Shown here in pieces: positions 3,986-48,285 of a DNA stretch of 64,000 nt; within the stretch, counting starts at the first letter, position 1; the number at the start of each line of letters is the position of its first letter. The stretch covers positions 3,983 to 67,982 of the forward strand of contig CAZGMK010000015.1 of the NCBI GenBank assembly GCA_964526835.1, read 5' to 3'. This DNA is from an uncultured Ignavibacteriales bacterium. GTDB lineage: Bacteria; Zixibacteria; MSB-5A5; GN15; FEB-12. The notes under the pieces are model-generated. The model was not told where the DNA came from, did no database searches, and saw nothing but the letters and a program-made list of their open reading frames with translations. Position numbers and translations under genes: made by a program.

Positions 3986-6982
<2,997 letters not shown>

Positions 6983-7390: not shown

Positions 7391-7498
7391 TCCGCACCAA
7401 CCTCCGCCCAGGTCATTCCCGCGCCCGGGCGCCGGGTTCAAACTCCGTCTGGGACCGACTCTCCTACCCCAGACGTAGTTTGCCGTGCTGTCCCTTCC

Positions 7499-18155: not shown

Positions 18156-18184
18156 TTGACAAGGTAACCCCTTAGCCATATATT
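18156..18184 (+). promoter_or_regulatory. Sigma70-type promoter upstream of the dockerin cluster
   Basis: TTGACA (18156-18161)-N17-TATATT (18179-18184) in an AT-rich intergenic region. Confidence 0.65.
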
Positions 18185-18503: not shown

Positions 18504-19709
18504 ATGGCTCCTGACAACAAGTCCCGCAGATCGTGGCTTGCCACGATCACCATGGTTGTTGCCATAGCCATGCTTGCCGCCGCTTCTACAGCCGCTGAAC
18601 CGCTGCCCCAACTGGTTGTGCAGGTTGGTGATACTACCGCCCCGGTAGGCGCCACCGCCACCATTTCAGTCTTTCTGGACAACTACGCGGACACAATCGC
18701 CGGCTTTAACCTGTGGCTGCAACTGGATCGAAACGATATTATGGTCTATGAAACCAGCGTCGACACCCTGATCGACACCCTCCGCTTCTTCTGCGAGAAC
18801 TGGGAGGGCGACAGTTGCACCGATTCTCTGCTGGTGCTCGGCGACACCCTGTATTTCCAGTGCAATGAATGGGATGCGGGGTTCGAATACTGCCTGGATT
18901 CGAGCCTGGTTCCGCTCGACTCGATTATATATGCGGGCTGGAATTACGACTTCTTCTATGAGGCCGAGTGGGACTTCGCGCACATAGACACTGTCGAGCA
19001 GCTTATCGGCACCTTCGACACTACCAATACCCTGGTGTCCGGGTGGGAGTGGATCGACGCTCGATCTTTCTCCAGCGGCGGCTATGACCTCAATGTGGCC
19101 GGTATCGCCGACCTGCCCGGCGGCAGCATTACGACCGGTATCGCTCCCCAGCAGGGCGGCCTGCTGATAAAACTGCAGTCGCAGGTGCTGGAGGACATCC
19201 CCGACACCCTGGCCGATCGTACTGTCAATGTTATGATACAGTCGAATTTCCTGGGCCACTTCAATTTCTCCGATCCCCAGGGGAACTCCATCGGGCTTGA
19301 ATACATCGAAGTACCCGACACCAATTGCTATATATGCACCGCCTGGGCGGGCGATATCTGCCTGAACTGGAAGCGTGTCTCGCTGCCGCCGCCGGGTGGC
19401 TGCGACTCGACTCATGTAGGCGTCGACACCCTGACCCGACTGGATACATCCAAAGTCTGGCTTTACGATGGCTCCCTGACCGTGCTGGGCATGGCCTGCG
19501 GCGATGTTAACGGCGATGGTTCCGAAACTCCGGATATCTCCGACCTGGTTTACCTGGTGAGCTACATGTTCGCCGGCGGGCCCGAACCGGTGCAGATGTG
19601 GGCCGCCGATGTGGACTGCTCCGGCAGCGAGACCCCTGATATTTCCGATCTGGTTTACCTGGTGAGCTATATGTTCTCGGGCGGACCATGGTGCGGCTGT
19701 CAGCCGTAA
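18504..19709 (+). CDS. Secreted cohesin-like + C-terminal dockerin protein
   Basis: AAGGAGG RBS; signal peptide; cohesin-like start VQVGDTTAPVGATATISVFLDN...IAGFNLWL; duplicated GDVNGDG/ADVDCSG-SETPDISDLVYLVSYMFxGGP. Confidence 0.88.
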   Translation: MAPDNKSRRSWLATITMVVAIAMLAAASTAAEPLPQLVVQVGDTTAPVGATATISVFLDNYADTIAGFNLWLQLDRNDIMVYETSVDTLIDTLRFFCENWEGDSCTDSLLVLGDTLYFQCNEWDAGFEYCLDSSLVPLDSIIYAGWNYDFFYEAEWDFAHIDTVEQLIGTFDTTNTLVSGWEWIDARSFSSGGYDLNVAGIADLPGGSITTGIAPQQGGLLIKLQSQVLEDIPDTLADRTVNVMIQSNFLGHFNFSDPQGNSIGLEYIEVPDTNCYICTAWAGDICLNWKRVSLPPPGGCDSTHVGVDTLTRLDTSKVWLYDGSLTVLGMACGDVNGDGSETPDISDLVYLVSYMFAGGPEPVQMWAADVDCSGSETPDISDLVYLVSYMFSGGPWCGCQP

Positions 19710-20036
19710 GCGACTACTGCTACGACCGAAGAGATGACAAAGAAACCGAAGAATAGAGAATCGGCAGCCTTCCCGAGGTCGGGAAGGCCGCCGCAACCGT
19801 TAACCCTCAACGAACGGAAAGGAGGGCGATACACTCAAGAGGTTTCATGCACGCGCTCAAATGAAAGGACGACCAACCGAGTTTTTCAGCATCGTGAAAG
19901 GACCGACCGGGATTTGTGGCTCTCATCCCAAACGAGTTCCGCATCGCGATCTGAGGGGGAAACGAATGGCTGGGTTGTTCGTTGCATCTTCGATTACGAC
20001 AATTGATAATGAAGCATTTAGTTTTAGGAGACTAAA

Positions 20037-22583
20037 ATGAAACGCGTTCCATTGCTTATCGCTTTGGTCCTGACCTTTTCATTTGGGCTGACCTTTGCAC
20101 AAGGTGGGCATATCGAGCTGGACAACCTCAGTGAGGTGACTTTCGAAGACGGAGGCACCACCTACTGGTTTGCCGGTATGCCTCTCGAGTTTGATATGCG
20201 CCTCACCAACGGCCCGGATCCTACCTTGGGTATTACCAACGGTTTCGGGTTTGGTTCGTCAACCGGCGGTACCTACACGCCCGCTTCGATGGTTGAGGCC
20301 GTTGATCAAGGTACCCTGGATACCTGGTTTGACCTGACTCATGGCATCAACACGTTCAGTCTCACCGGCTCAGGCGTCGATACTGTCGCCTGGTACGGCT
20401 CGATCATGATGGGCCCCGGAATTCCGCCCGACTGGACCGGCATCTATGGCGTGATCTCGACCGGTGCTCTGGAAGTCGGCCATGAATACTGCCTCGACTC
20501 GAGCTACTTCCCGCCGTCAGGGACCTGGCTGTGGGCTCCGACCGGCGCCCCGACCTGGGGTGGCCCGTACTGTTTCGAGGCCGCTACTCCGCCGAACTTC
20601 CCGCCGGAGTTCACCACTTGTCCGCCTACCTACACCGGCAGCCACTGCAACACCATCTCACTGGACCTGGCCACGTTCGATGAAGAGGGCGATGCCGTCA
20701 GCTTCGACGTCACGACCGGCCCGGGTGCGGTGACCGACGTTTCGGGCAGTGGTCAGACGACTACCGCCAAGTACACCTTCGCGCCTTCGCTGGCCGATGT
20801 GGGTACCCACACGGTGGTTATCGAAGCCAGTGACCAGTTCGGCACCGGTGATCCCTGCACCTTCGACCTGAACCTCACCAACGAAGCTCCGGTGTGTGAC
20901 TTCGCCTCTGGTCCGTATCTGGTCGGCATGGGTAACACCTTCACCAAAACACTCACTTTCGATCAGGTCGACTGTGACCCGATTACCGATGTCAGTATCA
21001 CCGGCGTCACCCCGGCCCCGGTAGGCACCTACGACATCACCGGTAACGTCTTCACGTTCAACACGGTTGCCCCCGATGATGGCGACAATACTTTCGTGTT
21101 CGAGGTCACCGTCACTGATGGTGTCGGTGAATCCACATGCGAGTTGGTAGTTGAGGTCCTGTCGACTGAGCCTTTCGAGGTTCAGATCGAGAAGGTCCAC
21201 CACGCCATCCAGGGTATGCACCACATGGTTGACGTGACCGTCAACAAGGGTTCCGAGAAGCTCCAGGGCTTCGACATCCTGGTTGCCTACGACGCTTCCG
21301 CTCTGTATTTCGCCGAGGCTCTCCCGGGCGACGTCTACACCGAGTGCGGCTGGGAGTACTTCAACTACCGCTATGGCCCGAACGGCAACTGCGGCAGTGC
21401 CTGTCCGAGCGGCATGCTTCGTGTGGTCGGTATCGCCGAGACCAACAACGGCGCCAACCACCCGGCCTGCTACAACCCGGACCTGGAGTTCACCCTGTTC
21501 ACTCTGGACTTCCTGGTCACCGACGACCGCACTTTCGAGTGCATGTATGTGCCGATCCGGTTCTTCTGGATGGACTGCGGCGACAACTCGCTGGCTTACA
21601 GCACCCAGGACGATCCTGATGCTGTGATCCAGGGCGTGAGCCGCTTCATCTATGACTACGGTCTCGATCCGATGATGGAGATCAGCAACATGACCACCGG
21701 TTTCCCGACCTACACTGGTGTTCAGGAAGAGTGCTTTGACAACGAGCCCGGCAAGCCGTTGCCGATTCAGTTCGTTGACTTCATCAACGGTGGTATCGAC
21801 ATCGTCTGCGCCGACTCGATCGACGCTCGTGGCGACGTCAACCTCAACGGTGTTTCGAATGAAATCGCGGATGCCGTACTGTTCAGCAACTACTTCGTTT
21901 ATGGTCTGGGTGTCTTCACGGTCAATATGGCTGGTCAGATTGCCGCTACCGACGTCAACGCTGATGGTCTGACCCTCAGTGTTGGTGACCTGGTTTATCT
22001 GATCCGTCTGGTCGTTGGCGACGCTCTTCCGTACTCGAAGCTGAGCACGGTTGAAGCCAACTACACCGTGGACGGCGGCGTTGTTTCGATCGACGCGACC
22101 ATGGGTGCTGCGTATCTGGTTGCCTCCGGCAATGTCACTCCGACACTGCTGGCCGACAACATGGAGCTGAAGTACAACTTCGACGGTTCCAACACGCACA
22201 TTCTGGTTTACTCGATGGAGCAGGGCGAGACCTTCCAGGGCGAGTTCATAGAGGCCGGTAACATCATCAGCGCCGAGTTCGCGACCTACGAAGGTGCGCG
22301 CGTCGTCGCCAGTGAGATGCCGACCAACTATGGTCTGGCCCAGAACTACCCGAACCCGTTCAACCCGGTCACCAATATCAGCTTCCAGATGCCGAATAAT
22401 GGTGACTACACTCTGACCGTTTACAACGTGACCGGTCAGGTTGTTGAGACGTTTGCCGGCAATGCTCAGGCTGGTGTCACCACCATCACCTGGGATGCCT
22501 CCAACCAGGCTTCGGGTATCTATTTCTACAAGCTCGAGGTTAACAACTTCTCCGAGACCAAGAAGATGGTCCTGTTGAAGTAA
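20037..22583 (+). CDS. Secreted multidomain scaffold: novel N-terminal domain, Ig/cadherin-like repeats, cohesin-like domain, internal dockerin, degenerate cohesin, T9SS-A/FlgD-like CTD
   Basis: AGGAG RBS; signal peptide; LQGFDILVAYDASAL; RGDVNLNG...EIADAV and TDVNADG...SVGDLVYL; QNYPNPFNP...ASGIYFYKL...KKMVLLK. Confidence 0.9.
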   Translation: MKRVPLLIALVLTFSFGLTFAQGGHIELDNLSEVTFEDGGTTYWFAGMPLEFDMRLTNGPDPTLGITNGFGFGSSTGGTYTPASMVEAVDQGTLDTWFDLTHGINTFSLTGSGVDTVAWYGSIMMGPGIPPDWTGIYGVISTGALEVGHEYCLDSSYFPPSGTWLWAPTGAPTWGGPYCFEAATPPNFPPEFTTCPPTYTGSHCNTISLDLATFDEEGDAVSFDVTTGPGAVTDVSGSGQTTTAKYTFAPSLADVGTHTVVIEASDQFGTGDPCTFDLNLTNEAPVCDFASGPYLVGMGNTFTKTLTFDQVDCDPITDVSITGVTPAPVGTYDITGNVFTFNTVAPDDGDNTFVFEVTVTDGVGESTCELVVEVLSTEPFEVQIEKVHHAIQGMHHMVDVTVNKGSEKLQGFDILVAYDASALYFAEALPGDVYTECGWEYFNYRYGPNGNCGSACPSGMLRVVGIAETNNGANHPACYNPDLEFTLFTLDFLVTDDRTFECMYVPIRFFWMDCGDNSLAYSTQDDPDAVIQGVSRFIYDYGLDPMMEISNMTTGFPTYTGVQEECFDNEPGKPLPIQFVDFINGGIDIVCADSIDARGDVNLNGVSNEIADAVLFSNYFVYGLGVFTVNMAGQIAATDVNADGLTLSVGDLVYLIRLVVGDALPYSKLSTVEANYTVDGGVVSIDATMGAAYLVASGNVTPTLLADNMELKYNFDGSNTHILVYSMEQGETFQGEFIEAGNIISAEFATYEGARVVASEMPTNYGLAQNYPNPFNPVTNISFQMPNNGDYTLTVYNVTGQVVETFAGNAQAGVTTITWDASNQASGIYFYKLEVNNFSETKKMVLLK

Positions 22584-22624
22584 GTTTGCTTTAGGCTTAT
22601 AGTAATAGTAAACGTGACCACGCT

Positions 22625-22656
22625 CCCCGGAGAGGTTAATCCCTCTCCGGGGTTCT
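22625..22656 (+). terminator. Hairpin after 20037-22583
   Basis: CCCCGGAGAGG-loop-CCTCTCCGGGG followed by TTCT (short U-tract). Confidence 0.55.
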
Positions 22657-23128
22657 AAACCGAGACGCCAAGCCAAGGAGTGACGCCAAATCGGATTGCT
22701 AAAGACTTAGAACTGAACCAACAGAACGAAAGAGTTTTACGATGACGACCCCACCTCGGCGCCAGCCGAATCATCTTGCCAAACGGTCGTCTTTTTTTTA
22801 TCTTGACAGGGAAGTCTGGGCGGCCCGACCGTCGGCTGCGCAGAGTGTTGCAACATTGCATAACAGGAAAGATCGCTGCAGTTCAGATAGTACTCTTCAC
22901 CGCAAAGCGCGATTCCTTGGAATACTGCAAGGGGACAGCTATCGTCCGCCAACTAACTGTTTGATTTGCTCTTGGGGCCGATAAGGCCCTGCCGGACATA
23001 TCGTTAAACGGACCTGACGACTACGGCTTCGGCCACCACCGGATCGCCGGAAGGACAGGATGAGACCTTCCCGGCATGATCAGAAAAGAAGCCGTTGGGT
23101 AAGGAAATTGCTCCCAACGGATAGTGAT

Positions 23129-24559
23129 ATGAAGCCTTTGATTCGGAATATGTTGCGCCCGCTTCGCCGGGTCATGCTCGCAGCCGCGCCGGCGGTCATA
23201 CTGATGACCGGCCTTGCGGCCGCTCAGGCCGATTATGTGCTGAAACTGGACACTGTCAGCGGCCAGCCCGGCGCCGCTATCGATTACTATGTCAACCTGG
23301 AGAACGCCGACGAGGTGGGCGGCTTCAACCTGCTGGTGGGCTACGATCCGACCGCCCTGTGGCCGCAAATGATTACCCTCAACGACACCCGCGCCGAGGC
23401 CTTCGAGGAGTTCGAGTTCAGCCTCAACGAAGCCGGCATCCCGGGCAACCTGCGAATGGTCGGCCGGGCCGATGCGCCCGGCGGCGATATCGGGCAGCCC
23501 CTGCCCGCCGGTGATGGCCCCGTGATCCGGATTCGCTTCGGGATCATAAATGACATCCAGTTCGCCGGCATGTGGGTGCCGGTCTGGTTTGAGTTTTCCG
23601 ATCCGCTGACCCAGGATGACAACACGCTCACCAACGTCGTCGGCTCAAAGATCGGTCAGGATGAGATAGACTATTACGACGGCTGGGTCAACATCATGGA
23701 GATGGGCGAGGTATTGCTCGGCGACGTCAATCTCAACGGTTTTGCCTGGGAGGTCAGCGACTACGTCTACCTGACCAACTACTTCATGATGCCGAGCCTG
23801 TATGTCCTGAATGCCCTGCAACTGGCCAACTCCGACATGAATCAGGATCAGATCCCGGCCACCATCGCGGATCTGGTTTACCTGATCAACAGAATCGTCT
23901 CCGGCGCCAGGCTTAACGCCGCAGCGGGGGACCCTTCGCTGCCGGTTGCTGTTCGCCTCGACGAGGCGCCCGACCGCACCAGCATCAGTTATAACGCCGG
24001 GTTCACGGTGGGCGGTGTGCTGCTGGTGCTCAGGGTGTCGGACAACTTCGACGAGTCGGATCTGATCCTCCGTCAGCAGCAGATGAGCTTGGTCACTGAA
24101 CGCCGGGGCGACCGTGTCAGTGTGTTCGTGCACAGCCGCGACGGGCAGACGCTGCCGGCGGGGCACTGGCCGCTCCTTACGACGCCCGCGGGGTCATCGG
24201 TCGAACTGGAGCAGGTGGAACTGGCCAGCGCCGACGGCCGCACCGCGCGCGTAGTGCATAATGGCGGACGGTCGTTGCCGGAGGGTTTCGAACTGGGCCA
24301 GAACTACCCAAACCCGTTCAATCCCACCACGACTATCGAGTTCAGTGTACCCCGACCCGGCCGGGTCAACCTGACGGTATATGATTTGCTTGGACGAAGA
24401 GTGGCGGTGCTGATTGACGATCTCCTCGACGCCGGCCGTCATCGAGTGGTTTTCGATGCTTCGATGATCGGCGGCGAGGTGGCCGCCAGCGGCGTATACT
24501 TCTACCGCCTGCAAACCGACCGAGCCACAGTCACAAGGAAGATGGTACTTTTGAAATAG
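23129..24559 (+). CDS. Secreted cohesin + internal dockerin + degenerate cohesin + T9SS-like CTD protein
   Basis: Start moved to MKPLIRN; signal peptide ends AAAQA; VGGFNLLVGYDP...GDGPVIRIRF; GDVNLNG..EVSDY and SDMNQD..TIADLVYL; QNYPNPFNP...RKMVLLK. Confidence 0.88.
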   Translation: MKPLIRNMLRPLRRVMLAAAPAVILMTGLAAAQADYVLKLDTVSGQPGAAIDYYVNLENADEVGGFNLLVGYDPTALWPQMITLNDTRAEAFEEFEFSLNEAGIPGNLRMVGRADAPGGDIGQPLPAGDGPVIRIRFGIINDIQFAGMWVPVWFEFSDPLTQDDNTLTNVVGSKIGQDEIDYYDGWVNIMEMGEVLLGDVNLNGFAWEVSDYVYLTNYFMMPSLYVLNALQLANSDMNQDQIPATIADLVYLINRIVSGARLNAAAGDPSLPVAVRLDEAPDRTSISYNAGFTVGGVLLVLRVSDNFDESDLILRQQQMSLVTERRGDRVSVFVHSRDGQTLPAGHWPLLTTPAGSSVELEQVELASADGRTARVVHNGGRSLPEGFELGQNYPNPFNPTTTIEFSVPRPGRVNLTVYDLLGRRVAVLIDDLLDAGRHRVVFDASMIGGEVAASGVYFYRLQTDRATVTRKMVLLK

Positions 24560-24617
24560 GCGATTTGCCATGCTTAGCGACCAGAGAGACAGCAAGCAAG
24601 CCCCAGGAGGTTACAAT

Positions 24618-27383
24618 ATGGTGAAGATGATGAGAATCCCGCTCGCAGCGATGATGTTGCTTCTGATTGTCGGCGGCGGCGCATCGGCGCAGATTCCGCC
24701 GGGCATCGAGTGTACCAATGACTACCTTGATTGTGGTGATGTCTCGGAGTCATCGGTCGATACAGTTCGACTGGTCAGCTTCGACGGTCGCCCGGGCGAT
24801 ACCGTCTGGCTGCCGGTATATCTCAAGACAAAGGACGATACCGTGTCCGGTTTTTCGATGATCATCGAATACAGCGACACCTATCTTACGCCTGTCAAGG
24901 CCAGCACCAATCCCGCCGACTCGCTCTACATCAAGTATGAACTCATGGGCGGGCTCCTGGAGGCCCAGCAGCGTTACTGGGACAGTCACCCAAATGACAG
25001 CCCGGATGTTTTCACGGCTGCGATCTCGCAGAACCCTTTCGATGAGGGAGCCATAACCTGCGGCTTCAACCTGTCGACCTTCGACAAGCCGGAGCGGATT
25101 TTCCCCGGCGGTGAGATCATCTTCCGTCTGGCCTTCGAGGTCGATGAAGCTATGCAGGAAGGCCAGACAGCCCAATTCCGCTGGTGGGAGATTAACGAGT
25201 ATTCGATAATCGACACGGGCCAGATGATCGCATACTGCGCGGACTGCCGCCGCACCAACCTGTCGGTGGACAGGACCACGACCTTCCAGGTGTGTGTCGA
25301 TTCGTCTATCAATCGCATCGATACCATCGACACCGGCCCGCCGGTCATAACCGATACTATCTGGCAGTGTGATGAGTATGCGGACACTACCATAATTGTC
25401 AATCGCACACGCAACCCCACTACCCGCGACGGTCAGTTCACGGCCAACCTCTCACCGCCGCCGGTGATAGCGAGTTTCACCAGTTCGGACCCGGACGACT
25501 CGGTCGGCACCAACCAGGGGTTCGTGCTGCAATGGACAGTGGACAACACCGACTCGGTTGTCATTTACCAAGATGCGAATGTGCTTCACACTTCGGTTCA
25601 GAGCAACGGTTTCTTTGCTGCGACCTCGCCATCGACTGCGGGCACATACACCTACACGTTATGGGCGTTCAATCCTTACGACAGTGTTTCGAGATCGATC
25701 GATATACTGGTTCAGGATGGAGATGAACCGCCGCCGGATGAGCATGCGCCGGTTATCAATGTGAACACTTCCTTCAGCATTGATGTCGGCAACACCCTGA
25801 ACTTCACCGTTAACGCCACCGACGTTGACAATGACTTCCTGACCCTGACGGCCACGAATCTGCCCGCGGGAGCCACTTTCCCCAGCGCCCAGGGCACCGG
25901 CTCGGCGTCCTCGACATTCAGCTGGACTCCCGGTTTTAACCAGACAGGCAGTCACACGGCCACTTTCCGGGCCGAGGACGCCACTTCGCGTGTAACCACG
26001 GTGAATGTCACGATCAACGTCAATGAACCCGAATTCGATAAGCTGTTCACCTCCTCTGTCGAAGGCAGCGCCGCTGGCGGCCTGCCCGGCAAGACCAACA
26101 TAGATTTCCCCATCAACCTGGTTACCAGCCAGACTGTCTACGGTGTGCAGTTTGACTTCCTTTACAGCAGTCAGAACTTCACGGTAACCGGGGTTGACGT
26201 AACCGACAATACGGCCGAATACGTAGTATATGAGAACATCGGACAAACGCCCGGCGAGGTTCGATTCGTGACCTTCGGCATGGCCAATGAGCCGATTGGA
26301 ACCGACGGCACGGAGATTCTGCTCGTCAAGATGGCTGTCCGGTCCAACGCCTCTCCGGGCCTGTATCCGATCTACCTGGAGGATGCCTGGGAATCGATCA
26401 ACCCCGACCCGTCGATCCCCTCGCTGCCCCTGATGAGCGACAGCGGGATCATCATGGTCGATGCTTACGGCGACGTTAACCTCGATACCCGCATCGACGT
26501 GGCCGACCTGGTCAGCATTGTGGGGTATATCATCGGCGACTTTCCCCTCGACCCGCGCCGCTATGAGGTTGCGGACATGGTGGTCGATGGTGTCGTGGAT
26601 GTATTCGACCTGGTGGCGGTGATCAACTCCATCTACGGGGCGCCGATCGACGCAGCGCCGCCGCAGTTCATCGAGGACCGTTTCGCCAGTGTCGAGTTGG
26701 ACTACGCCGCCATGGCCGGCGGGCTGTCGGATGAATTGACGATCCGCTCGGAGATGCCTGTCGACATCGCCGGTGTTCAGCTCGAGATTCTCTATGATCC
26801 GGGCGTGGTCCAGTTGGGCGTGCCGGAGTTGACCGAGGATGTTCCGCATCTGGCCCTGCGCAGCCGGGATGACGGCAACGGGCGGATGACCATCCTCATG
26901 TACTCCTCCAATCCGTTCGCGGCCGATAAGATAATCCGGGCGGGCCGCAGCGACCTGGTCAACATACCGATCAGGACGATCCGTCGGCTTGATGTCGGCG
27001 ACCGGTCGCAACTGGTTCTTAACCAGGCCAAACTGGCCACGGAGAACGCTATGGCGGTCAAGGTGCACGGTATGGATGCACCCCTGCCGACCAGTTTTCA
27101 CCTGGCTCAAAATTACCCGAACCCGTTTAACCCGACCACCACTATCGAGTTTACCCTCGGCGCACCGGGACAGACCGGCGCCCAGCGGGTAGATCTGAAT
27201 GTCTACAACATACTTGGCCAACAGGTGAAAGAGCTGATCAGCGGCACCCTGCCCGCGGGCAACCATCAGGTTACCTGGGACGGAACCGATGGCGCCGGGA
27301 AACAGGTTGCTTCCGGAATCTACCTGTACAGGTTACAGGTCGGCGACGCCAGCCAGGCCAAGAAGATGCTGCTGCTCAAATAG
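24618..27383 (+). CDS. Secreted scaffold: two cohesin-like domains, Ig and cadherin-like domains, internal dockerin, degenerate cohesin, T9SS-like CTD
   Basis: AGGAGG RBS before MVKMMRIP; VSGFSMIIEY...GEIIFRLAF; VYGVQFDFLY; GDVNLDTRIDVADL and ADMVVDGVVDVFDL; QNYPNPFNP...KKMLLLK. Confidence 0.9.
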   Translation: MVKMMRIPLAAMMLLLIVGGGASAQIPPGIECTNDYLDCGDVSESSVDTVRLVSFDGRPGDTVWLPVYLKTKDDTVSGFSMIIEYSDTYLTPVKASTNPADSLYIKYELMGGLLEAQQRYWDSHPNDSPDVFTAAISQNPFDEGAITCGFNLSTFDKPERIFPGGEIIFRLAFEVDEAMQEGQTAQFRWWEINEYSIIDTGQMIAYCADCRRTNLSVDRTTTFQVCVDSSINRIDTIDTGPPVITDTIWQCDEYADTTIIVNRTRNPTTRDGQFTANLSPPPVIASFTSSDPDDSVGTNQGFVLQWTVDNTDSVVIYQDANVLHTSVQSNGFFAATSPSTAGTYTYTLWAFNPYDSVSRSIDILVQDGDEPPPDEHAPVINVNTSFSIDVGNTLNFTVNATDVDNDFLTLTATNLPAGATFPSAQGTGSASSTFSWTPGFNQTGSHTATFRAEDATSRVTTVNVTINVNEPEFDKLFTSSVEGSAAGGLPGKTNIDFPINLVTSQTVYGVQFDFLYSSQNFTVTGVDVTDNTAEYVVYENIGQTPGEVRFVTFGMANEPIGTDGTEILLVKMAVRSNASPGLYPIYLEDAWESINPDPSIPSLPLMSDSGIIMVDAYGDVNLDTRIDVADLVSIVGYIIGDFPLDPRRYEVADMVVDGVVDVFDLVAVINSIYGAPIDAAPPQFIEDRFASVELDYAAMAGGLSDELTIRSEMPVDIAGVQLEILYDPGVVQLGVPELTEDVPHLALRSRDDGNGRMTILMYSSNPFAADKIIRAGRSDLVNIPIRTIRRLDVGDRSQLVLNQAKLATENAMAVKVHGMDAPLPTSFHLAQNYPNPFNPTTTIEFTLGAPGQTGAQRVDLNVYNILGQQVKELISGTLPAGNHQVTWDGTDGAGKQVASGIYLYRLQVGDASQAKKMLLLK

Positions 27384-27406
27384 AGGTCAGGGAGGTCATA
27401 GGAACC

Positions 27407-35995: not shown

Positions 35996-36017
35996 CTGCG
36001 CTGCCTTTCCCGATGAC

Positions 36018-36046
36018 AAAGGCCGCCCCACCGGGCGGCCTTTTTT
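36018..36046 (+). terminator. Rho-independent terminator
   Basis: AAAGGCCGCCC-CACC-GGGCGGCCTTT then a T run. Confidence 0.9.
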
Positions 36047-36119
36047 GGGGCTGGATCAAGCGGTTAGTACGGCCTCACGAGAAATGCGGAAATATCTGTA
36101 AGCCATTGTCCAAAAGGCC

Positions 36120-36148
36120 TTGACAAGGGTTTTGGCCAACATTATAAT
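36120..36148 (+). promoter_or_regulatory. Perfect consensus sigma70 promoter
   Basis: TTGACA (36120-36125)-N17-TATAAT (36143-36148). Confidence 0.85.
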
Positions 36149-36586
36149 GTTATTGCTATCGCCCTAGTGCGGTGGCATTGCAAAATGGCGTGGTCTCACG
36201 TAATTCTCGCTTGGTGATTGGGTTTTCACTCAAGCTCATAATGTATGGCTTCGGTAGAGATGCTGTACGTGAAGGTTGACGAAGAACGTTTCTAGGCAAT
36301 TGCTTTGATGTACGCAAGCTTTGTATTTCCATTGCTTCAGAACGCGAAACTACTCAACCCTGAGGGCTGGCGTATATGATGCGCCCGGCGCTCGATTCGG
36401 ACGTAAGGAGGTGTACCCCGCAGCAGAGTAATTGAAACAAACTGACGGTTGCATTTTGATGAAAAGGGTATCCCGCCCGAGACCGCATATAAGGACGAAC
36501 CTTTCACTCGGTCGAAGGATGATGCCCGGACACGAAAGCATTTTCTTGTTGGGAACTTGTTAACTTCTTATCAAAAGGAGCGATTG

Positions 36587-39500
36587 ATGACCAGGAGAAT
36601 TTCTACTCTGATGATTCTCTCCTTACTGGTAGTCGCCCTCATGGCTATGTCGGTTTCCGCCGCCAAGGCCCCCCAGAGCACGCGCATAATCAGCCCGGAC
36701 GCAAAGAGGGTTATGCAGTATGCGCTGCCGATGGCGGGCGCCGAGACGGCGACCTTTGGCTCTTCGAGCAAGGGCCAGACCGAACAGGCCCTGGGCATGG
36801 CCAACCCGCCGAATTCCGGTTCGCCCGGTATGGCCGTTGGCCTGACCACCTACGACTATCAGCACAACGGCCGTATGCCCCGCATGGTCGACTGGGGCTA
36901 CGATGCCACCCAGGGATTCGCCATTCACTTCCTGTGGATGTGGATGGAGGGTTCGACCATTGCGAACCGCAAATACGCCTATAACGCCTGGAAAGACAAC
37001 GCCAGCGATCTGGCCTTCCCTTACACCGGGGCATCTGAAGTCCAGGACGATGGTGGTATGGCCGGTTACGTGGCGCTTGATGTCACCGACACCGACTACG
37101 GTGACGGCATCAACCTGCCGAACCTTGCCGTGCCTTCAGGCCACGAACACACCGGCGATGGTGTGTATCGTGTTACGACCTACTGGGATTTCACACCGGT
37201 CATGGGTTTCTTCAACACGAGCTCAGCGGTTTCGGATGCGGTTTGGCAGTATGCCTTGCAGCCGGATGGCGAGTATGTCATCTGGCCGTCGATGGCCTAT
37301 CAGGACATTCCGGGCAATGACCCGGTGCTGCACGTTTTCGCGCAGGAATCCAAGCCTGATGCGGCCGATCCGCAGTCGATCTACTACTTCCGTAAGGTTG
37401 GTTATCAGGATGCCGGTACCTGGGATTTCCCGCCTTACGTTGTCGACACCGTCTTTGACATCGCTCAGGATGTCACCGCTTCCAAGACCAATGGCAAGGT
37501 TGCGTTGGTGTGGGTGGCCAACCTGCCGGCTCCCGGCGACTGCGACACCTGCTCCGACAACACGGGCAACCACGCCGAGGTCAGTGTCCAGTTGGACAAT
37601 GATATGTACTATCAGATATCGAACGACTTCGGTGCGACTTTCCAGCCTCGTGTCAACCTGACGCAGAACCAGAGAGGCGTGGACGGTTATCGTCCGTATA
37701 CCGACCTGCAGTCTCTGATCACCTCCGACAACAACCTGCACATAATCTGGACCGGCCGTGTCTGGGAAGGCTCGGCTGAGCCGACCACGGCTTACACCTG
37801 GCGCTGCCGTGTTTTCCACTGGAGCGAGCTGGTTACCTGCGGTCCGCGTACCGTGGCTGATCTGGAATGGGATCAGACGACTTGTGACGGTGGTTCCTGG
37901 AACCAGTTGAACGCCGCCAAGCCGGGCCTCGGTGAATGTAACGGCCGTCTGTATGCCACCTGGACGCAGTTCAACAACACGCCGGAAGGCGACACTGCCG
38001 ACTGCGCCCAGCGCGGTCTTGACGGCAGCGATTTTGTTGGTGCGGCCAACGGTGAGCTGTGGGTTTCGGTGTCTGAGGACCTCGTTGGTGTGCTTTGGGA
38101 CAAGCCCCGTAACATGACCAACTCCCCGAGCCCGGGCTGCGATCCTGAGGGCGGCAGCGATCCCTGTGATTCCGATCACTGGTCGTCGATAGCCCGTGAG
38201 GGTTACGGCTACGGCGCTTCGACCGGCTACGGCGCGAATGTTCCGGACTCGGCCAAGGTGGACGTTTCCGGTTCTTACACCGGCGACGCCTACATTCCGA
38301 TGCAGTACATCCACGACATCGATGCCGGTGGTATCGTACAGGATGAGGGTACCTGGCAGGAAAACCACGTAGTGTGGTTCTCGCTTGCCTGTGTCGACCC
38401 GGTTGAGACCAAGTTGTTGTCGGTCAGCCCGTCAGAGGTCGGCTACCCGGCCTGGACCGATACCGACGTGAGCAACACCGGCGACACCACCCTGGTACTT
38501 GAGAATACCGGTAACGCCCAGTTCACGGCCAACTACTCGATCACCATGAGCACCGACGGCAGCATTACGCCGAGCTCAGGTAACGTGACGATCCCGGCCG
38601 GCTGCAACAACACGACCACCCTGCCGATCACGTTCACTCAGGGCAGCGGTACCAGTGTGGCTGGTGAACTGACCTTCACGGGTTCGTTCGACAACTCGCC
38701 GCGGGTGGTCCCGCTCGAGTGGTTCTTCGTTGATACCCTTATCCCGCCGAAGTGGGATACTGTTTATGTGGACGACGGTACCAAGGCCGCGGCTCTGGCT
38801 CTTATCGTTGCCAACAATGGTAACAAGGGTAATCAGGGCAGAGGCCACGTGAACCTCGACTACTTCGACTACGGTGACTGCGACGTCTATCCTGAAGGCG
38901 GCGATGATCTGTATCCGGGCGATGCCTCGATCTATCTGTACGATGGTTCGAAGATCATCTGCTGGGATGACGCCGGTACTCCGGTCTGCGACGCCTCTAT
39001 CTTCGATCGTAACTGGATCCAGGGTGGCTTCGTGCCCGGCGCCTACAGCAGCGCCGACGTTGTTCCGGCCTGGGTGCCCACCCCGGGCGGTACGCCGGTT
39101 GGTGACTTCTTCACCGCCACCTACTACAACCGCGACACCACTATCCAGATCGACGAGCTGACCTTTGGTCCGGACAGCCCGACCAACCCGAACTGGATGA
39201 TTCAGGTCGCCAAGTTCAGCAACCTGACCGGCAGCGATATCAGCGGTCTGGCTATTGGTGAAGGCATCGACTGGGATGTCCCGTCCGACTCCGCTTCCTG
39301 GAACAACTCGGGCTTCGACGCTACGCGTCGCCTGATGTATCAGGTTGGTTCCGAGTTTGGTCAGGACGATCAGTGTCAGCCCAACGACGACCGCTACGGT
39401 GGTCTGGCTGTGGCCGCCCAGTATGACGGCACCAACTGGACCGAAGCCACTTACGGCCTGTACACCCTCGACAACTCGACCCAGGTGTATCCGTTTGGCG

Positions 39501-39982
39501 GTTTCGACGATGACTCGTTGTGGAAGTACATGGAGCAGAACAGCGGTTTCTCGATTTCCGATGCGACCGACGATGACCTGCACATGATGGCCACGTACCA
39601 GTGGAACTACACGCTGACCGCTTCCGGTGAGCTGGTGGTTTACACCTGTCTGGTGACCGAGAAGGCCGGTGAGGCCGCCTTCCTGGCCGCCTGTGATGAG
39701 TGTCTGGCTTACGTGGACAGTGAGTTCAAGCCGGGCGGCGGCGAGACCTGCTGCAACCTGCGCGGCGACATCGACCACAGTGGCGCCGGTCCGGACATCT
39801 CCGACTTGGTCTACCTGGTGAGCTATATGTTCTCCGGTGGCACGCCTCCTCCGTGTGAAGAAGGCGGCGTTTACCTTGAGGCCGACGTCGACGGTAGTGG
39901 CGCCGGTCCGGACATCTCCGACCTGGTTTACCTGGTGAGCTACATGTTCTCCGGTGGCCCGGCCCCGGTTCCGTGTCCGTAA
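36587..39982 (+). CDS. Large Cys-rich secreted protein (probable propeller-like region, Ig-like and beta-sandwich regions) with C-terminal dockerin
   Basis: AAGGAG RBS before MTRRISTL; signal peptide; VGLTTYDYQHNG; LSVSPSEV...LVLENTGNA; two copies of GAGPDISDLVYLVSYMFSGG framed by Cys; no CTD. Confidence 0.9.
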   Translation: MTRRISTLMILSLLVVALMAMSVSAAKAPQSTRIISPDAKRVMQYALPMAGAETATFGSSSKGQTEQALGMANPPNSGSPGMAVGLTTYDYQHNGRMPRMVDWGYDATQGFAIHFLWMWMEGSTIANRKYAYNAWKDNASDLAFPYTGASEVQDDGGMAGYVALDVTDTDYGDGINLPNLAVPSGHEHTGDGVYRVTTYWDFTPVMGFFNTSSAVSDAVWQYALQPDGEYVIWPSMAYQDIPGNDPVLHVFAQESKPDAADPQSIYYFRKVGYQDAGTWDFPPYVVDTVFDIAQDVTASKTNGKVALVWVANLPAPGDCDTCSDNTGNHAEVSVQLDNDMYYQISNDFGATFQPRVNLTQNQRGVDGYRPYTDLQSLITSDNNLHIIWTGRVWEGSAEPTTAYTWRCRVFHWSELVTCGPRTVADLEWDQTTCDGGSWNQLNAAKPGLGECNGRLYATWTQFNNTPEGDTADCAQRGLDGSDFVGAANGELWVSVSEDLVGVLWDKPRNMTNSPSPGCDPEGGSDPCDSDHWSSIAREGYGYGASTGYGANVPDSAKVDVSGSYTGDAYIPMQYIHDIDAGGIVQDEGTWQENHVVWFSLACVDPVETKLLSVSPSEVGYPAWTDTDVSNTGDTTLVLENTGNAQFTANYSITMSTDGSITPSSGNVTIPAGCNNTTTLPITFTQGSGTSVAGELTFTGSFDNSPRVVPLEWFFVDTLIPPKWDTVYVDDGTKAAALALIVANNGNKGNQGRGHVNLDYFDYGDCDVYPEGGDDLYPGDASIYLYDGSKIICWDDAGTPVCDASIFDRNWIQGGFVPGAYSSADVVPAWVPTPGGTPVGDFFTATYYNRDTTIQIDELTFGPDSPTNPNWMIQVAKFSNLTGSDISGLAIGEGIDWDVPSDSASWNNSGFDATRRLMYQVGSEFGQDDQCQPNDDRYGGLAVAAQYDGTNWTEATYGLYTLDNSTQVYPFGGFDDDSLWKYMEQNSGFSISDATDDDLHMMATYQWNYTLTASGELVVYTCLVTEKAGEAAFLAACDECLAYVDSEFKPGGGETCCNLRGDIDHSGAGPDISDLVYLVSYMFSGGTPPPCEEGGVYLEADVDGSGAGPDISDLVYLVSYMFSGGPAPVPCP

Positions 39983-40037
39983 TTTAGCTGACTGATTCGG
40001 GATCACATTTGTAGTGATTCCATCCGAATACAGCACC

Positions 40038-40071
40038 GCCATCCCCGCCTTCGGGCGGGGATGGCCTTTTT
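40038..40071 (+). terminator. Rho-independent terminator with cUUCGg loop
   Basis: GCCATCCCCGCC-TTCG-GGCGGGGATGGC-CTTTTT. Confidence 0.92.
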
Positions 40072-40349
40072 ATGTCTTGGAGAACCGCGGAACGTGGCTA
40101 TATTTAGGCGTCTGCATGCTCAATACCTGCATGAGCGTGACCGGGCATCCCGGCAAGCGTCGCCGGGTGTGGCCATCGAATCACGCATGAACCTAACCGG
40201 TCCATCATGTGTTGTATTCGTATAACTATGGGCAATTCGGCTGTGGTGGAACGCCCGCCCGAAACTGCTGCCAGAGGTAAATGATCGCAGGAAAAGTGTC
40301 GTCAATAGATAACAGCAACAATAGCCTTTCTAACTCAGCGGAGCATTTC

Positions 40350-42740
40350 ATGAACTCACAGCGAACAATACCGACGCAACTGCTGGCCATTGTCGGGGCG
40401 GCGGCGCTGGTGCTGGCGCTAGGGCTGCCGGCGCAGGCGGAGTACAAGTCCGACAGGCCCCCACCGAGACCGTATATTATCGAGGGAGTAGTGACGGTGG
40501 TCTTCGCCGATCATGCCAATCTCTCCAACTACAACGATGGCTTCAAGAGGGCGAACTTCGCCCTGCCGACCCTGGATGCGGTGCTCGAGCAGTTCGAGGC
40601 CGAGTCGGCCAGAAGGCTGTTCCCCTGGGAGAAACAGCGCCCCGACAAGTCATCGAGTATGCCCGACTACACGCGCTACTGGGAAGTGAAGTTCCCCGCC
40701 AAATACGACGTAGCCGAGTTGATCGAGGCCCTGGAGCGGAATCCGAATGTCCGCCAAGCCGAGCCGGTATGGGCCCTGCCGCTGGCAGCCACGCCCAACG
40801 ACCCGAGTTTCAACAGCCAGTGGCACTGGAACAACGGCGGCCTGGATATGGAGGGCGGGTGGGATTACGAGACAGGTAGCGAGTCGATCGTGGTGGCTAT
40901 CATCGATTCCGGCGTCAACCACAATCACCCCGACATCAGGCGGCACCTCTGGATCAATCCTGGCGAGGATATCGACGGCGATATGGAGCCCTTCGATGTG
41001 GACGACCTGAATGGTGTCGACGATGACGACAATGGTGTTGTCGACGACCTCAACGGGTATGATTTCTTCACCGGGATCAGCAATCCGCACCCGGGGGAGG
41101 ATGCCGGCACGCCCGACCCGGACTACAATGACTTCAACGGCCACGGCACCGGCTGCGCCGGAATCGTCTCCGCCATCACCAACAACAGCAGCTACGTGGC
41201 CGGTATGGCCGGCGGCTGGACCGAGGGACAGCGCTTCTACCGTGGGGTGAGCATTATGGCCCTGAGAGTGGGCGCCACCGCCTCCGACGGCAACGGCTAT
41301 GTGAACTCCAATAACTGCGGCACGGCCATTCAGTACGCCGCCCGCAACGGCGCGCATGTCATAAACTGCTCCTGGGGGGCGACCAGCACCGCCACCATGA
41401 ATGCGGGTATGGTCTTGGTTGACTCGGCGGGTGTTACGATTACCCACGCGGCGGGTAACGACAACGCCAACGACCCTGATTACCTGGACGCAGACCCCGG
41501 TGGCGTGCAGGTCCTGTCGGTCGCCTCGGTGACCGGAAGCGATGTCAAGTCGTCGTTCTCCAACTACGGTTTCTGGGTTGACGTGAGCGCCTACGGCGAT
41601 GCCATTCTGATGCCCTGGTCGAACCAGTACAGCCCCACGACCAGCACCTCGTGGGGAACCTCGTTCGCGGCTCCGATGGTGGCCGGGCTGGCGGCCCTGA
41701 TTCGCTCCGCCATGCCGTCGCTCACCAAGGAGCAGGTCGACTCGATCATCATTAACACCGCCGATGACGTCAACGGCGTCAACCCTTCGTACTTCGGCAT
41801 GCTCGGCTCAGGCCGGATCAGCGCCAGCGCAGCGCTCGGCGGCCTGGCCAATGCGAAGTTCGTGGCGGATGTCTACGAGGGCCCGGCCCCCCTCACAGTG
41901 CAGTTCACCGATCAGTCGCCCTACTTGCCGACCGCCTGGACCTGGAGCTTCGGCACCGGCGACAGCGCCGGTGTGCAGAATCCCCAGTATACGTACAACG
42001 ATCCGGGCATCTACGATGTCTCGCTGATAGTCGACGATAGCGTTAGCCTTGGTCCGGGCGAAGAGCATTTGAGAAACCTGATCTGGGTGACCGCCGATAC
42101 CCTCAAGATGGACTCGGTCATTATCGAGCGCGGGGGAACAGCGGTAGTTGGGGTTCGCGTTTCCAATACCTCGCTTCTGGCGGAGCTTCAGTTCGCCTTT
42201 GATTTCACCAACGACGACGGCATCGCGCTGGACAGCTTCACGGTTACAGGTACGCGCACCGATTATTTCTACGATGTCAGTTTGAACGGGCTCTCGGGCC
42301 AGAAGCAGTCCATCAGGTTCCGCCCGGACGACCCCGCGAGCGGCTCCTCGAATTATCTGCCGGCCGACACCGGCGCTATTCTGAACCTGTGGTTCTCGGC
42401 GGCCTCTTACGCACCGCCCGCGGCGGTGGTCGTGATCGACACCACCCACATCGGCACCAAGACAACCAAACTGACCTCGATCTGGGGTGAGCTGGTTCCG
42501 GTGATCGTGCCCGGAAAGGTGGTCGTTAACGCCTGCGGACGCGGCGATGTCGATTGCAGCGGCGCCATCGATATCCAGGATCTGGTTATTCTTGTCGCCT
42601 TCATGTTCCAGGGCGGCCCGCCGCCGGATCCCTGGTATACCGGCGATGTGAACGGCGATGGAGCCGGCCCGTCGATCGACGACCTGGTCTACCTGGTGTC
42701 TTACATGTTCAGTGGCGGCCCGCCCCCTCCGCCGATGTGA
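40350..42740 (+). CDS. Secreted S8 subtilase + PKD + cohesin-like domain + C-terminal dockerin
   Basis: Start moved to MNSQRTIP; triad VAIIDSG, NGHGTGCAG, GTSFAAP; PKD (PLTVQFTDQS...WTWSFG...YTYNDPGIYDVSL); cohesin-like LAELQFAF...GAILNLWF; dockerin GDVDCSG..DIQDL and GDVNGDG..SIDDLVYLVSYMFSGGP. Confidence 0.95.
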   Translation: MNSQRTIPTQLLAIVGAAALVLALGLPAQAEYKSDRPPPRPYIIEGVVTVVFADHANLSNYNDGFKRANFALPTLDAVLEQFEAESARRLFPWEKQRPDKSSSMPDYTRYWEVKFPAKYDVAELIEALERNPNVRQAEPVWALPLAATPNDPSFNSQWHWNNGGLDMEGGWDYETGSESIVVAIIDSGVNHNHPDIRRHLWINPGEDIDGDMEPFDVDDLNGVDDDDNGVVDDLNGYDFFTGISNPHPGEDAGTPDPDYNDFNGHGTGCAGIVSAITNNSSYVAGMAGGWTEGQRFYRGVSIMALRVGATASDGNGYVNSNNCGTAIQYAARNGAHVINCSWGATSTATMNAGMVLVDSAGVTITHAAGNDNANDPDYLDADPGGVQVLSVASVTGSDVKSSFSNYGFWVDVSAYGDAILMPWSNQYSPTTSTSWGTSFAAPMVAGLAALIRSAMPSLTKEQVDSIIINTADDVNGVNPSYFGMLGSGRISASAALGGLANAKFVADVYEGPAPLTVQFTDQSPYLPTAWTWSFGTGDSAGVQNPQYTYNDPGIYDVSLIVDDSVSLGPGEEHLRNLIWVTADTLKMDSVIIERGGTAVVGVRVSNTSLLAELQFAFDFTNDDGIALDSFTVTGTRTDYFYDVSLNGLSGQKQSIRFRPDDPASGSSNYLPADTGAILNLWFSAASYAPPAAVVVIDTTHIGTKTTKLTSIWGELVPVIVPGKVVVNACGRGDVDCSGAIDIQDLVILVAFMFQGGPPPDPWYTGDVNGDGAGPSIDDLVYLVSYMFSGGPPPPPM

Positions 42741-42807
42741 GGTGACACCTCGCCGCTTCAAGTGAACTTCTCGCGGGCAGATGTATATCATCCGCCCGCA
42801 GTAACTG

Positions 42808-42844
42808 CGCCCGGTGAACATATAACTGTCACCGGGCGTTTTTT
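42808..42844 (+). terminator. Rho-independent terminator
   Basis: CGCCCGGTGA...TCACCGGGCG followed by TTTTTT. Confidence 0.8.
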
Positions 42845-42847
42845 CTA

Positions 42848-42876
42848 TTGACGCCTTGCTTGCCGGGCAGTATCAT
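42848..42876 (+). promoter_or_regulatory. Sigma70-type promoter
   Basis: TTGACG-N17-TATCAT upstream of 43062. Confidence 0.6.
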
Positions 42877-43061
42877 TTGCCGCATAAGGTGAGTCATGCG
42901 GTGTGAAAATGCATGCGGGCCTGCCCCTTTTGCAAGGAGGTGACGCCTGATCAAAAAGCGTTAACTGATTTTACCTTGTTTGACTCGTTAATTGCCATAC
43001 GTTGACAGATAGATTGAAGAGAATGGTAGTGTTTAGATAGACGCATGGAGGCTATGCAAGT

Positions 43062-43946
43062 ATGAAGACAAAGTTATTGACAGTTCTGGCGGTTTTGACT
43101 CTGGGCGCCTGCGGCCTGGCGTGGGGGCAGAGTGTATCTGTGGACCATGTTGACGGCACGCTCATCGGCTCCGATACCCTGATGCAAGACAGCACGTACA
43201 CTTTCTATCTTCGTTGGCAAGGTCCTGCTGATCGTAACGTGGACGGGGTCACTACGGGCTGGCGGGTACACTCGCCTGATGGCGGCACTTGGACTACGAC
43301 TGTCATTGACACAACCGGTACCCTGGGAGGAGCCCAATTCGATTTGGTCTGGCAGCTTCAGCCAGCCGGGTGGGAAGGTAATGTTACCGGCTCTGGTGCT
43401 GATACGATCGGTGTAGGCGGCGCCAAGATGTTTGGTCCGGGCATGCCGGCAGGCTTTGACGATATCGTCAACACCATCACCATCGGCCCGATCGGCCAGG
43501 ATGACGGTAAGCAGATTTGTCTGGACTCTTCGTACTACCCACCGTCCGGTCTGTGGAAGTGGGCTGCAGAGGGTAGCGTTGACTATTTCCCTGTCTGGGA
43601 CGGTCCGCATTGCTATACCATTGAAGTTGCAAGCGACGTTTCCGCCCGTCCCTCCGATGGCCTGCCCACCCGGTGGATGATGAGCCAGAACTACCCGAAC
43701 CCGTTCAACCCGACCACCGAGATCGCTTTCGACGTCCCCTCGCGCTCTCATGTCACCCTGAATGTGTACAACGTTCTCGGCCAGCAGGTGGCGACCCTTG
43801 TCGACCAGGAGCTGGCCCGCGGGAGCTACACGGCCGACTGGGACGGTACCAGCACCTCCGGGACCGCCGCGGCCAGCGGGGTTTACTTCTACCGTCTGGA
43901 AGCCGACCAATACATCGACACCAAGAAAATGGTGCTGATGAAGTAG
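43062..43946 (+). CDS. Small secreted protein: one novel Cys-containing domain + T9SS-like CTD
   Basis: GGAGG RBS; signal peptide; domain homologous to the N-terminus of 20037 (TGSGADT, GPGMP, CLDSSYYPPSGLWKWA, WDGPHC); QNYPNPFNP...KKMVLMK. Confidence 0.9.
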   Translation: MKTKLLTVLAVLTLGACGLAWGQSVSVDHVDGTLIGSDTLMQDSTYTFYLRWQGPADRNVDGVTTGWRVHSPDGGTWTTTVIDTTGTLGGAQFDLVWQLQPAGWEGNVTGSGADTIGVGGAKMFGPGMPAGFDDIVNTITIGPIGQDDGKQICLDSSYYPPSGLWKWAAEGSVDYFPVWDGPHCYTIEVASDVSARPSDGLPTRWMMSQNYPNPFNPTTEIAFDVPSRSHVTLNVYNVLGQQVATLVDQELARGSYTADWDGTSTSGTAAASGVYFYRLEADQYIDTKKMVLMK

Positions 43947-43972
43947 CCGGTCCGACAAAGTTGATTTTCATG

Positions 43973-44003
43973 GCCCCCGTCGCCCTGGCGGGGGCTTTTC
44001 TTT
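43973..44003 (+). terminator. Rho-independent terminator
   Basis: GCCCCCGTC-GCCCT-GGCGGGGGC followed by TTTTCTTT. Confidence 0.75.
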
Positions 44004-46490: not shown

Positions 46491-46512
46491 CTCAATAGAG
46501 GGATACAAATTC

Positions 46513-48240: not shown

Positions 48241-48285
48241 TTCTCCGCAATTCGGCGGGATATCGAGTGGGTTGCTGGATTCGGT

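Follow-up and report, generated by a model that had tools for sequence, protein, structure and literature searches.

A phylum-wide Zixibacteria gene cluster predicted to encode a cellulosome-like, non-cellulolytic assembly at the cell surface

What might eight neighbouring genes for secreted proteins build at the surface of a diderm bacterium when their products share cohesins, dockerins and type IX secretion system (T9SS) sorting domains? The question is raised by positions 18504-43946 of a 64,000-nucleotide stretch of DNA from an uncultured bacterium of the Zixibacteria, the whole of which is referred to here as the window. Our reading, to which we assign a probability of roughly 0.55, is that this conserved Zixibacteria cluster encodes a cellulosome-like, non-cellulolytic assembly at the cell surface. 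As the original prediction for this DNA had it, the region contains eight consecutive plus-strand open reading frames (ORFs), p1–p8, each beginning with a signal-peptide-like hydrophobic segment recognised by eye, and the G+C content is even along the whole window. For p3, p6 and p7 a later ATG is the probable start codon; in the database, p6 begins at M47, not at the TTG at 36449. The genes and their modules are as follows, where CTD denotes the C-terminal T9SS sorting domain, Ig an immunoglobulin-like fold, and A and B the two dockerin classes defined below.

18504..19709, plus strand: p1, 401 aa; signal peptide, divergent cohesin with large insertions (aa 35-328, 18606-19487), class-A dockerin (aa 331-395, 19494-19688).
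20037..22583, plus strand: p2, 848 aa; unnamed N-domain common to p8 (20100-20576), two Ig-like modules (20622-21188), cohesin (21189-21806), class-B dockerin (21831-22019), module X (22029-22331), type-A CTD (22347-22580).
23060..24559, plus strand: p3, 499 aa, likely start M24 at nt 23129; cohesin (23222-23704), class-B dockerin (23705-23911), module X (23927-24283), type-A CTD (24305-24556).
24570..27383, plus strand: p4, 937 aa, scaffoldin-like; cohesin a (24771-25172), Ig/He_PIG module (25743-26024), cohesin b (26097-26459), class-B dockerin (26466-26636), probable cohesin c (aa 705-840, 26682-27089), type-A CTD (27114-27380).
27407..35995, plus strand: p5, 2862 aa; signal peptide, 29 tandem He_PIG/Big_9 Ig-like repeats (27479-35788), divergent class-A dockerin (35798-35986).
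36449..39982, plus strand: p6, 1177 aa from TTG or 1131 aa from the ATG at nt 36587; signal peptide, predicted Asp-box beta-propeller and beta-sandwich domains (~36821-39733), class-A dockerin (39764-39964).
40281..42740, plus strand: p7, 819 aa, likely start M24 at nt 40350; pro-domain, S8 subtilase (40884-41777), PKD (41877-42047), cohesin (42099-42530), class-A dockerin (42543-42725).
43062..43946, plus strand: p8, 294 aa; signal peptide, unnamed domain (43125-43631), type-A CTD (43692-43943); neither dockerin nor cohesin.

A duplicated-segment dockerin module, consisting of tandem calcium loops each followed by a helix, is visible in all of p1–p7. On isolated fragments, the Pfam model Dockerin_1 (PF00404, cut-off 22.9 bits) accepts p4 (30.9 bits), p5 (23.7 bits) and p7 (23.7 bits), scores p1 (14.7 bits) and p2 (15.7 bits) below its cut-off, and gives no match for p3 and p6; this check, which had been proposed together with the claim of seven dockerin proteins, thus endorses only part of the set. 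The claim itself holds, since hidden Markov models (HMMs) built from dockerins of the window or of its orthologues connect all seven modules to one another, with p2 matched at E 3e-18. A profile of 43 p6 homologues also matches dockerins of solved structure (4fl4_A, E 4.5e-6), and the AlphaFold model of p1 shows the helices expected of a dockerin at residues 345-392. The modules fall into two classes. Class A lies at the extreme C-terminus of p1, p5, p6 and p7, all of which are devoid of a CTD, the p5 copy being a divergent member. Class B is internal, directly follows a cohesin, and is confined to p2, p3 and p4, all of which carry a CTD; its second segment is the more degenerate one. In p1 and p6 the two dockerin segments alike contain a nearly identical helix, DLVYLVSYMFSGGP, which p7 has in its second segment, and the motif is kept in the p1 and p6 family consensus across the phylum. 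Retention of this helix on unrelated cargo is what a shared partner would produce, and would favour a partner common to these proteins.

Candidate partners are encoded in the same cluster. Pfam Cohesin (PF00963, cut-off 24.1 bits) recognises p3 (26.0 bits) and two fragments of p4 (a, 24.4 bits; b, 30.7 bits). The p2 module scores 13.6 bits, below the cut-off, and p1 and p7 have no match to this model, so that the proposed Pfam check, as for the dockerins, bears out some of the cohesins and passes over others. The remainder become apparent by profile and by predicted structure. An HMM of p3-orthologue cohesins matches p2 at E 4e-14, and the p7 module that follows the PKD domain aligns with the p3 cohesin over 101 columns (hhalign probability 92%, E 7e-7). 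The p1 module aligns with the p3 cohesin at 75% probability (E 2.5e-5); at ~300 residues it is about twice the usual length because of its large insertions. The test of the fold by predicted structure covers p1, for which an AlphaFold model built from 40 homologues has a predicted local distance difference test score (pLDDT) of 85. In a Foldseek search of the PDB with this model the top 50 matches are all cohesins, among them 6kgc_A (template-modelling (TM) score on the target 0.81, E 6e-7) and, at rank 8, the non-cellulosomal cohesin 2xdh of Archaeoglobus fulgidus. The expectation of at least five cohesin-bearing proteins is therefore borne out by p3 and p4 through Pfam, p2 and p7 through profiles, and p1 through its predicted structure. 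A third p4 module, c, is probably a cohesin as well, judging from an orthologue profile that matches the type-II cohesin 5g5d_A (E 0.026) and from an alignment to the p3 cohesin (hhalign 44%, E 2.4e-4). Module X, which corresponds to p4c in p2 and p3, has no assignment; that it is a cohesin in p3 has weak backing, since by hhalign it aligns weakly with p4c (E 1e-3) and not at all with the p3 cohesin. Single-sequence PDB searches with p1 and p4 returned nothing informative.

The motif NYPNPFNP occurs in the C-terminal domain of p2, p3, p4 and p8, and the four CTDs that had been predicted from it are confirmed by TIGR04183, the model of the type-A T9SS sorting domain (cut-off 23 bits), which scores 53.3, 40.3, 32.3 and 39.7 bits, respectively, each time at the extreme C-terminus. 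PF18962 (Por_Secre_tail) likewise matches p2 (48 bits), p3 (28 bits) and p8 (30 bits), and also p4. Separately, an M6-family metalloprotease of 1,233 aa (59731-63432), which lies outside the cluster, combines SdrD-B and CarboxypepD_reg repeats with the fifth type-A CTD copy of the window; it carries neither dockerin nor cohesin.

The arrangement is conserved well beyond this window. Where homologues of p1, p3 and p6 are named, they belong to metagenome-assembled genomes (MAGs) of candidate division Zixibacteria, and many of the 18 p3 orthologues found carry precomputed PF00963 and PF18962 annotations. A scan for p1 relatives in one genome per GTDB species yielded 25 loci, labelled Zixibacteria/Zixiibacteriota (10), ‘uncultured Ignavibacteriales’ (8), ‘bacterium’ (6) and Omnitrophota (1, on a 1.6-kb contig). 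The Ignavibacteriales labels (L008, L010, L013, L014, L020, L024, L028 and L031, 7/8 of which also have an adjacent p2) and the Omnitrophota label (L025) are probably placeholder names or binning errors rather than true hosts. Gene p2 directly follows p1 in 21/25 loci, and 18/25, down to 37% p1 identity, retain the order p1-p2-(p3)-p4-p5, or whatever part of it fits on the contig; the complete chromosome OY760907.1 is among them. A second complete chromosome, CP070824.1, has p1 and p2 only within the fetched flank. The whole order p1–p8, followed by GH35-like and gamma-glutamyltranspeptidase (GGT) genes, is present in GCA_043819515.1, and the order p5–p8 in two further contigs. Upstream neighbours of the cluster vary between genomes, p3 is missing in one genome, and its orthologues in distant genomes contain extra Ig repeats. 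In a six-frame scan of the whole window, dockerin and cohesin matches were restricted to p1–p7. The pattern is not a product of chance, because these matches are confined to seven genes and the order of the genes is kept in many genomes. As an observation on the p1 family alone, another Zixibacteria genome has three tandem p1-like genes (212, 344 and 349 aa; L005, 7894-11050) with no p2–p8 genes nearby; the family therefore has dispersed paralogues.

How could these parts fit together? In the assembly that we propose, p2, p3 and p4 would be exported by way of their type-A sorting domains and held on the outer membrane, where they would display four to five cohesins, two or three of them contributed by p4. 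The cohesin adaptor p1, the stalk p5, the propeller p6 and the cohesin-bearing subtilase p7 would be exported by Sec, each ending in a calcium-binding dockerin. Because their recognition helix is almost identical, the dockerins of p1, p6 and p7 may plug interchangeably into the anchored cohesins. The complex could also branch, since p1 and p7 carry cohesins of their own and the anchors carry a divergent second class of dockerin, which could provide cross-links. Its role would likely be attachment to particles or cells together with proteolysis at the surface. The original prediction had divided the proteins into CTD-bearing anchors and dockerin-only cargo. The dockerin classes do split according to the CTD, but the labels are too simple, because the anchors bear dockerins and the cargo proteins p1 and p7 bear cohesins.

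Several observations weigh against such an assembly, and some of them speak for a rival in which the secreted proteins are co-located and form no joint complex, with the dockerins acting as calcium-dependent stabilisers or intramolecular partners and the cohesins as beta-sandwich spacers. In p2, p3 and p4 the dockerin abuts the cohesin with almost no linker, so that the two could be a rigid structural unit and the dockerin not a plug free to engage a partner. The calcium loops of p1, p6 and p7 are 14 residues long, two above the canonical 12, and the class-B second segments have degenerate calcium-loop residues, as in the second loops of p3 and p4. Several modules score under the Pfam cut-offs, as described above. 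In one relative (L002) the p5 orthologue ends in a duplicated module that is not a dockerin, the dockerin being found on a second stalk gene. The T9SS component genes are absent from the window, and p1, p5, p6 and p7, having no CTD, are left with an unexplained route across the outer membrane of a diderm. Finally, the layout of the cluster suggests several transcription units and not one operon, given the wide gaps between most genes, the promoter matches and the terminator-like hairpins. Only p3 and p4 (11 nt) and p4 and p5 (24 nt) are closely spaced, the other genes being 300 to 600 nt apart, and the following signals lie between or around them.

18156-18184: sigma-70-type promoter match, 11/12, upstream of p1; a consensus match only.
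19762-19793: hairpin with a 14-bp stem after p1, with no plus-strand T-tail.
36120..36148, plus strand: sigma-70-type promoter match, 12/12 (TTGACA-17-TATAAT), upstream of p6; a consensus match only.
40038..40065, plus strand: strong GC-rich terminator-like hairpin after p6.
43972-43996: GC-rich terminator-like hairpin after p8.

Three features nevertheless make it unlikely, in our estimation, that the proteins act without forming a complex: the dockerin classes split cleanly according to whether a CTD is present, unrelated cargo proteins have recognition helices that are nearly identical, and the gene order is kept throughout the phylum. Each of these is hard to explain without a shared partner.

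The missing export route deserves separate consideration. Sec export would leave p1, p5, p6 and p7 in the periplasm, so that another exporter, vesicles or co-export with a CTD-bearing carrier must be invoked. Genes for the T9SS machinery (SprA/Sov, PorV, PorU, PorK-N/GldK-N) were found neither in the window nor in the flanks of the related loci, and the literature search returned no paper that links Zixibacteria with T9SS or type IX secretion and no usable survey of the T9SS across the FCB phyla. The CTD motif occurs in 0/120 listed p6-family homologues, which, like the shared helix, speaks for a common partner, and a crude motif search finds dockerin-like segments in the C-terminal tail of ~70/120 listed members. 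One explanation would be that the dockerin is an export tag that works in trans, with CTD-less cargo binding a cohesin–CTD carrier in the periplasm and the pair crossing the outer membrane through the T9SS. The T9SS transports folded proteins and the periplasm contains calcium, and the cargo families never carry a CTD whereas the cohesin carriers do. Conversely, we know of no precedent for such piggy-back export, and a type II secretion system or the release of vesicles could export the cargo instead; we consider the export-tag explanation quite unlikely. A broader conjecture, which we would advance only as a long shot, is that in Zixibacteria the dockerin has replaced the T9SS CTD as a general tag of secreted surface proteins, with CTD-less cargo able to cross the outer membrane solely on a cohesin–CTD carrier and the cohesin–dockerin pair serving as both export adaptor and surface tether.

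If the surface assembly is the better description, what would it carry? One putative cargo protein is p7, in which a subtilase had been predicted. Peptidase_S8 (PF00082) matches with 141 bits, there is a PKD_4 match, and the Asp, His and Ser motifs are intact (‘IDSGV’, ‘HGTGCAG’ and ‘GTSFAAP’), giving p7 the appearance of an active subtilase. The stalk p5 matches He_PIG at E 6e-166 and Big_9 at E 3e-152, and an iterated repeat HMM resolves exactly 29 units, the number that had been counted in the original prediction. In relatives the stalk is encoded by two genes, a first of 2,901 to 6,480 aa and a second of 1,650 to 2,322 aa with its own signal peptide (L002 1-9398, L032 1-9428 and L033 1-9402; the C-terminal modules were checked in L002 only). 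p5 unites the N-terminal part of the first product with the last 500 aa of the second product (61% identity), and its repeats are 77-83% identical at the DNA level. Either a fusion or a deletion between repeats has really taken place, or the assembly is chimeric and joins two genes.

The propeller p6 and the N-domain of p2 and p8 are the parts from which a different function could be argued, namely that the assembly degrades glycans or glycoproteins, with p6 a glycosidase of sialidase fold and the N-domain a CBM-like (carbohydrate-binding-module-like) binder of the substrate. p6 has no Pfam or NCBIfam match even at E 10, and its assignment to a named family was rejected on this ground. Its AlphaFold model (pLDDT 79) shows a beta-propeller followed by beta-sandwich domains and, in Foldseek, matches propeller glycosidases, bacterial sialidases among them; sialidase Asp-boxes are weakly matched by the family profile, and the many invariant residues of the family include Arg, His, Tyr and Asp as well as Cys. 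However, the TM-scores are low, and the propellers of integrin alpha and VPS10, which are not enzymes, score equal to the sialidases. On the strength of the model, p6 is perhaps best described as an Asp-box beta-propeller protein with a sialidase/integrin-like fold. Its large family consists of ~1,100-aa proteins in Zixibacteria MAGs that have the propeller, beta-sandwich and dockerin in this order, with several paralogues per genome; some members have TSP3 repeats ahead of the dockerin.

The N-domain, of ~170 aa, is defined by a BLAST match between residues 65-180 of p2 and 62-185 of p8, and has an invariant motif C-x-D-S...P-P-x-x-x-W-x-W, which takes the form ‘C(L/I)DS..YPPSGxWxW’ in p8. 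At E<=1e-3 its family numbers 932 cluster representatives; a single protein can have as many as five copies in tandem, and the accompanying modules include T9SS CTDs, dockerins, cohesins, TSP3 and PKD. Searches of Pfam and the PDB gave no relative of the domain, and the possibility that it is a hidden cohesin was rejected (hhalign probability ~1%, PDB profile search blank). Its conserved aromatic residues and its tandem copies on large secreted proteins would suit a role in binding glycans. The GH35/42-like and GGT genes that trail the cluster in conserved order also speak for a glycan-degrading assembly. Against this, no Pfam glycoside hydrolase (GH) or CBM family matches any of the eight proteins, and the GH35-like protein has no signal peptide. 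The original statement that no recognisable GH or CBM is present is thus upheld for sequence models, but as regards GH it holds for these only, because the p6 model is a sialidase/integrin-like propeller. Taken together, these points make glycan degradation an improbable function for the cluster, and attachment with surface proteolysis remains the role that we would favour.

The cluster is surrounded by ordinary chromosomal genes. Upstream lie SecA, a patch of restriction-modification and defence genes, and two HDOD genes; downstream are a GH35/42-like gene, GGT, a bactofilin-like gene, GGDEF, NagZ, AnmK, SpoIID, OmpA and an M6 peptidase. The GH35/42-like, GGT and bactofilin-like genes keep this order behind the cluster in several genomes, among them the window (44304-49608) and the related loci L002 (17774-21698) and L032 (17474-22633), which may reflect either a functional link or plain synteny. 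The GH35-like neighbour was rejected as a member of the secreted set for want of a signal peptide. The defence-like patch (2868-12190, minus strand) includes a TIR domain of the CAP12/Pycsar-effector type (ORF 2868-3191, with partial coverage of the model). It further contains a helicase-like protein of the T5orf172-ResIII kind (7499-10039) and a methyltransferase of Eco57I type that is divided between the ORFs 10039-11535 and 11525-12190. Further downstream are an OmpA-family protein with thrombospondin type-3 repeats (55100-56542) and, on the minus strand, a small multihaem cytochrome c (57252-57836).

If the modules bind as proposed, the cluster would represent a compact, genetically linked case in which cohesins and dockerins assemble on a diderm outer membrane and the cargo has nothing to do with the breakdown of plant cell walls. 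A design principle of Gram-positive bacteria would thereby reach an uncultured phylum that is common in sediments, groundwater and digesters. The cluster also raises the testable question of how dockerin-tagged proteins cross the outer membrane without a sorting domain. With ~seven cohesins and seven dockerins, the set is small enough for the mapping of specificity, and it points to two sizeable uncharacterised families in the p6 propeller and the p2/p8 N-domain.

Is the cluster, then, a cellulosome? The modules are those of the clostridial and ruminococcal systems: the same cohesin fold, duplicated-segment dockerins, multi-cohesin scaffoldins, two-module adaptors, and near-identical dockerins on different cargo. 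Those cellulosomes, however, belong to monoderm hosts, are anchored by S-layer homology (SLH) domains or sortase, carry GH cargo and have a CBM on the scaffoldin. Here no GH family matched the sequences of the seven dockerin proteins, no CBM was found in p4, and no SLH or LPXTG-type match; by its defining features, the cluster is not a cellulosome. It can be compared with other non-cellulosomal modules, such as Archaeoglobus fulgidus 2xdh, in which cohesins and dockerins occur in non-cellulolytic organisms and sometimes in a single protein. Peer et al. are said to have reported in 2009 that such modules are widespread outside cellulosomes, mostly without demonstrated function, which would speak for the rival of co-located proteins with no joint complex. 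To our knowledge, the earlier examples are scattered single genes that have no sorting domain and form no conserved multi-gene cluster. With the T9SS cargo of Bacteroidota, such as the gingipains of Porphyromonas gingivalis, the cluster shares C-terminal type-A CTDs on secreted surface proteins, proteases among them. As far as is known, every T9SS cargo in Bacteroidota bears its own CTD, unlike the present cluster, in which most of the putative cargo has a dockerin in place of the CTD.

Two systems from the Fibrobacterota–Chlorobiota–Bacteroidota (FCB) superphylum also bear comparison. In Chlorobium chlorochromatii, the neighbouring genes Cag_2037/Cag_2038 encode a non-cellulosomal cohesin–dockerin pair modelled with AlphaFold 3, in which one protein has a C-terminal dockerin and 18 Ig-like folds and its partner an N-terminal cohesin (bioRxiv 10.64898/2026.03.19.712371). 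The dockerin-tipped Ig stalk and the nearby cohesin partner recall our cluster; unlike it, the Chlorobium system consists of two genes, its cohesin protein is an RTX-type substrate of a type I secretion system (T1SS), and there is no T9SS CTD anchor. The literature search returned no paper linking Zixibacteria with dockerins or cohesins. A 2015 paper on Latescibacteria was rejected as a cellulosome precedent, its text containing none of the terms dockerin, cohesin, T9SS or type IX secretion, and the Caldithrix genome paper makes no mention of the same terms.

The nearest precedent is the cellulosome-like complex of ‘Ca. Stygibacter’ (Cloacimonadota), which Williams et al. 2021 (PMC8542988) deduced from MAGs and which comprises a scaffoldin that has cohesins in tandem and a T9SS CTD, together with GH18, GH57, S8 and C25 enzymes that bear dockerins. 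Both systems belong to FCB-superphylum diderms and are deduced from MAGs alone. Because a CTD-bearing scaffoldin with dockerin enzymes, including an S8 peptidase, had thus already been proposed, the original prediction that the novelty lies in the architecture is weakened: the central concept of a CTD-anchored cohesin scaffold is already in print. The two differ in construction. In ‘Ca. Stygibacter’ the one scaffoldin measures 3,755 aa and includes CBM2/CBM3 modules (PMC8542988), whereas the Zixibacteria genes encode three smaller CTD anchors, each combining cohesin and internal dockerin, place cohesins on two cargo proteins, contain no CBM or GH by sequence, and form one cluster that is kept throughout a phylum. 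What is new here is that phylum-wide cluster, its anchors that carry a cohesin as well as a dockerin, and two unnamed families, the dockerin-terminated propeller p6 and the widespread N-domain of p2 and p8.

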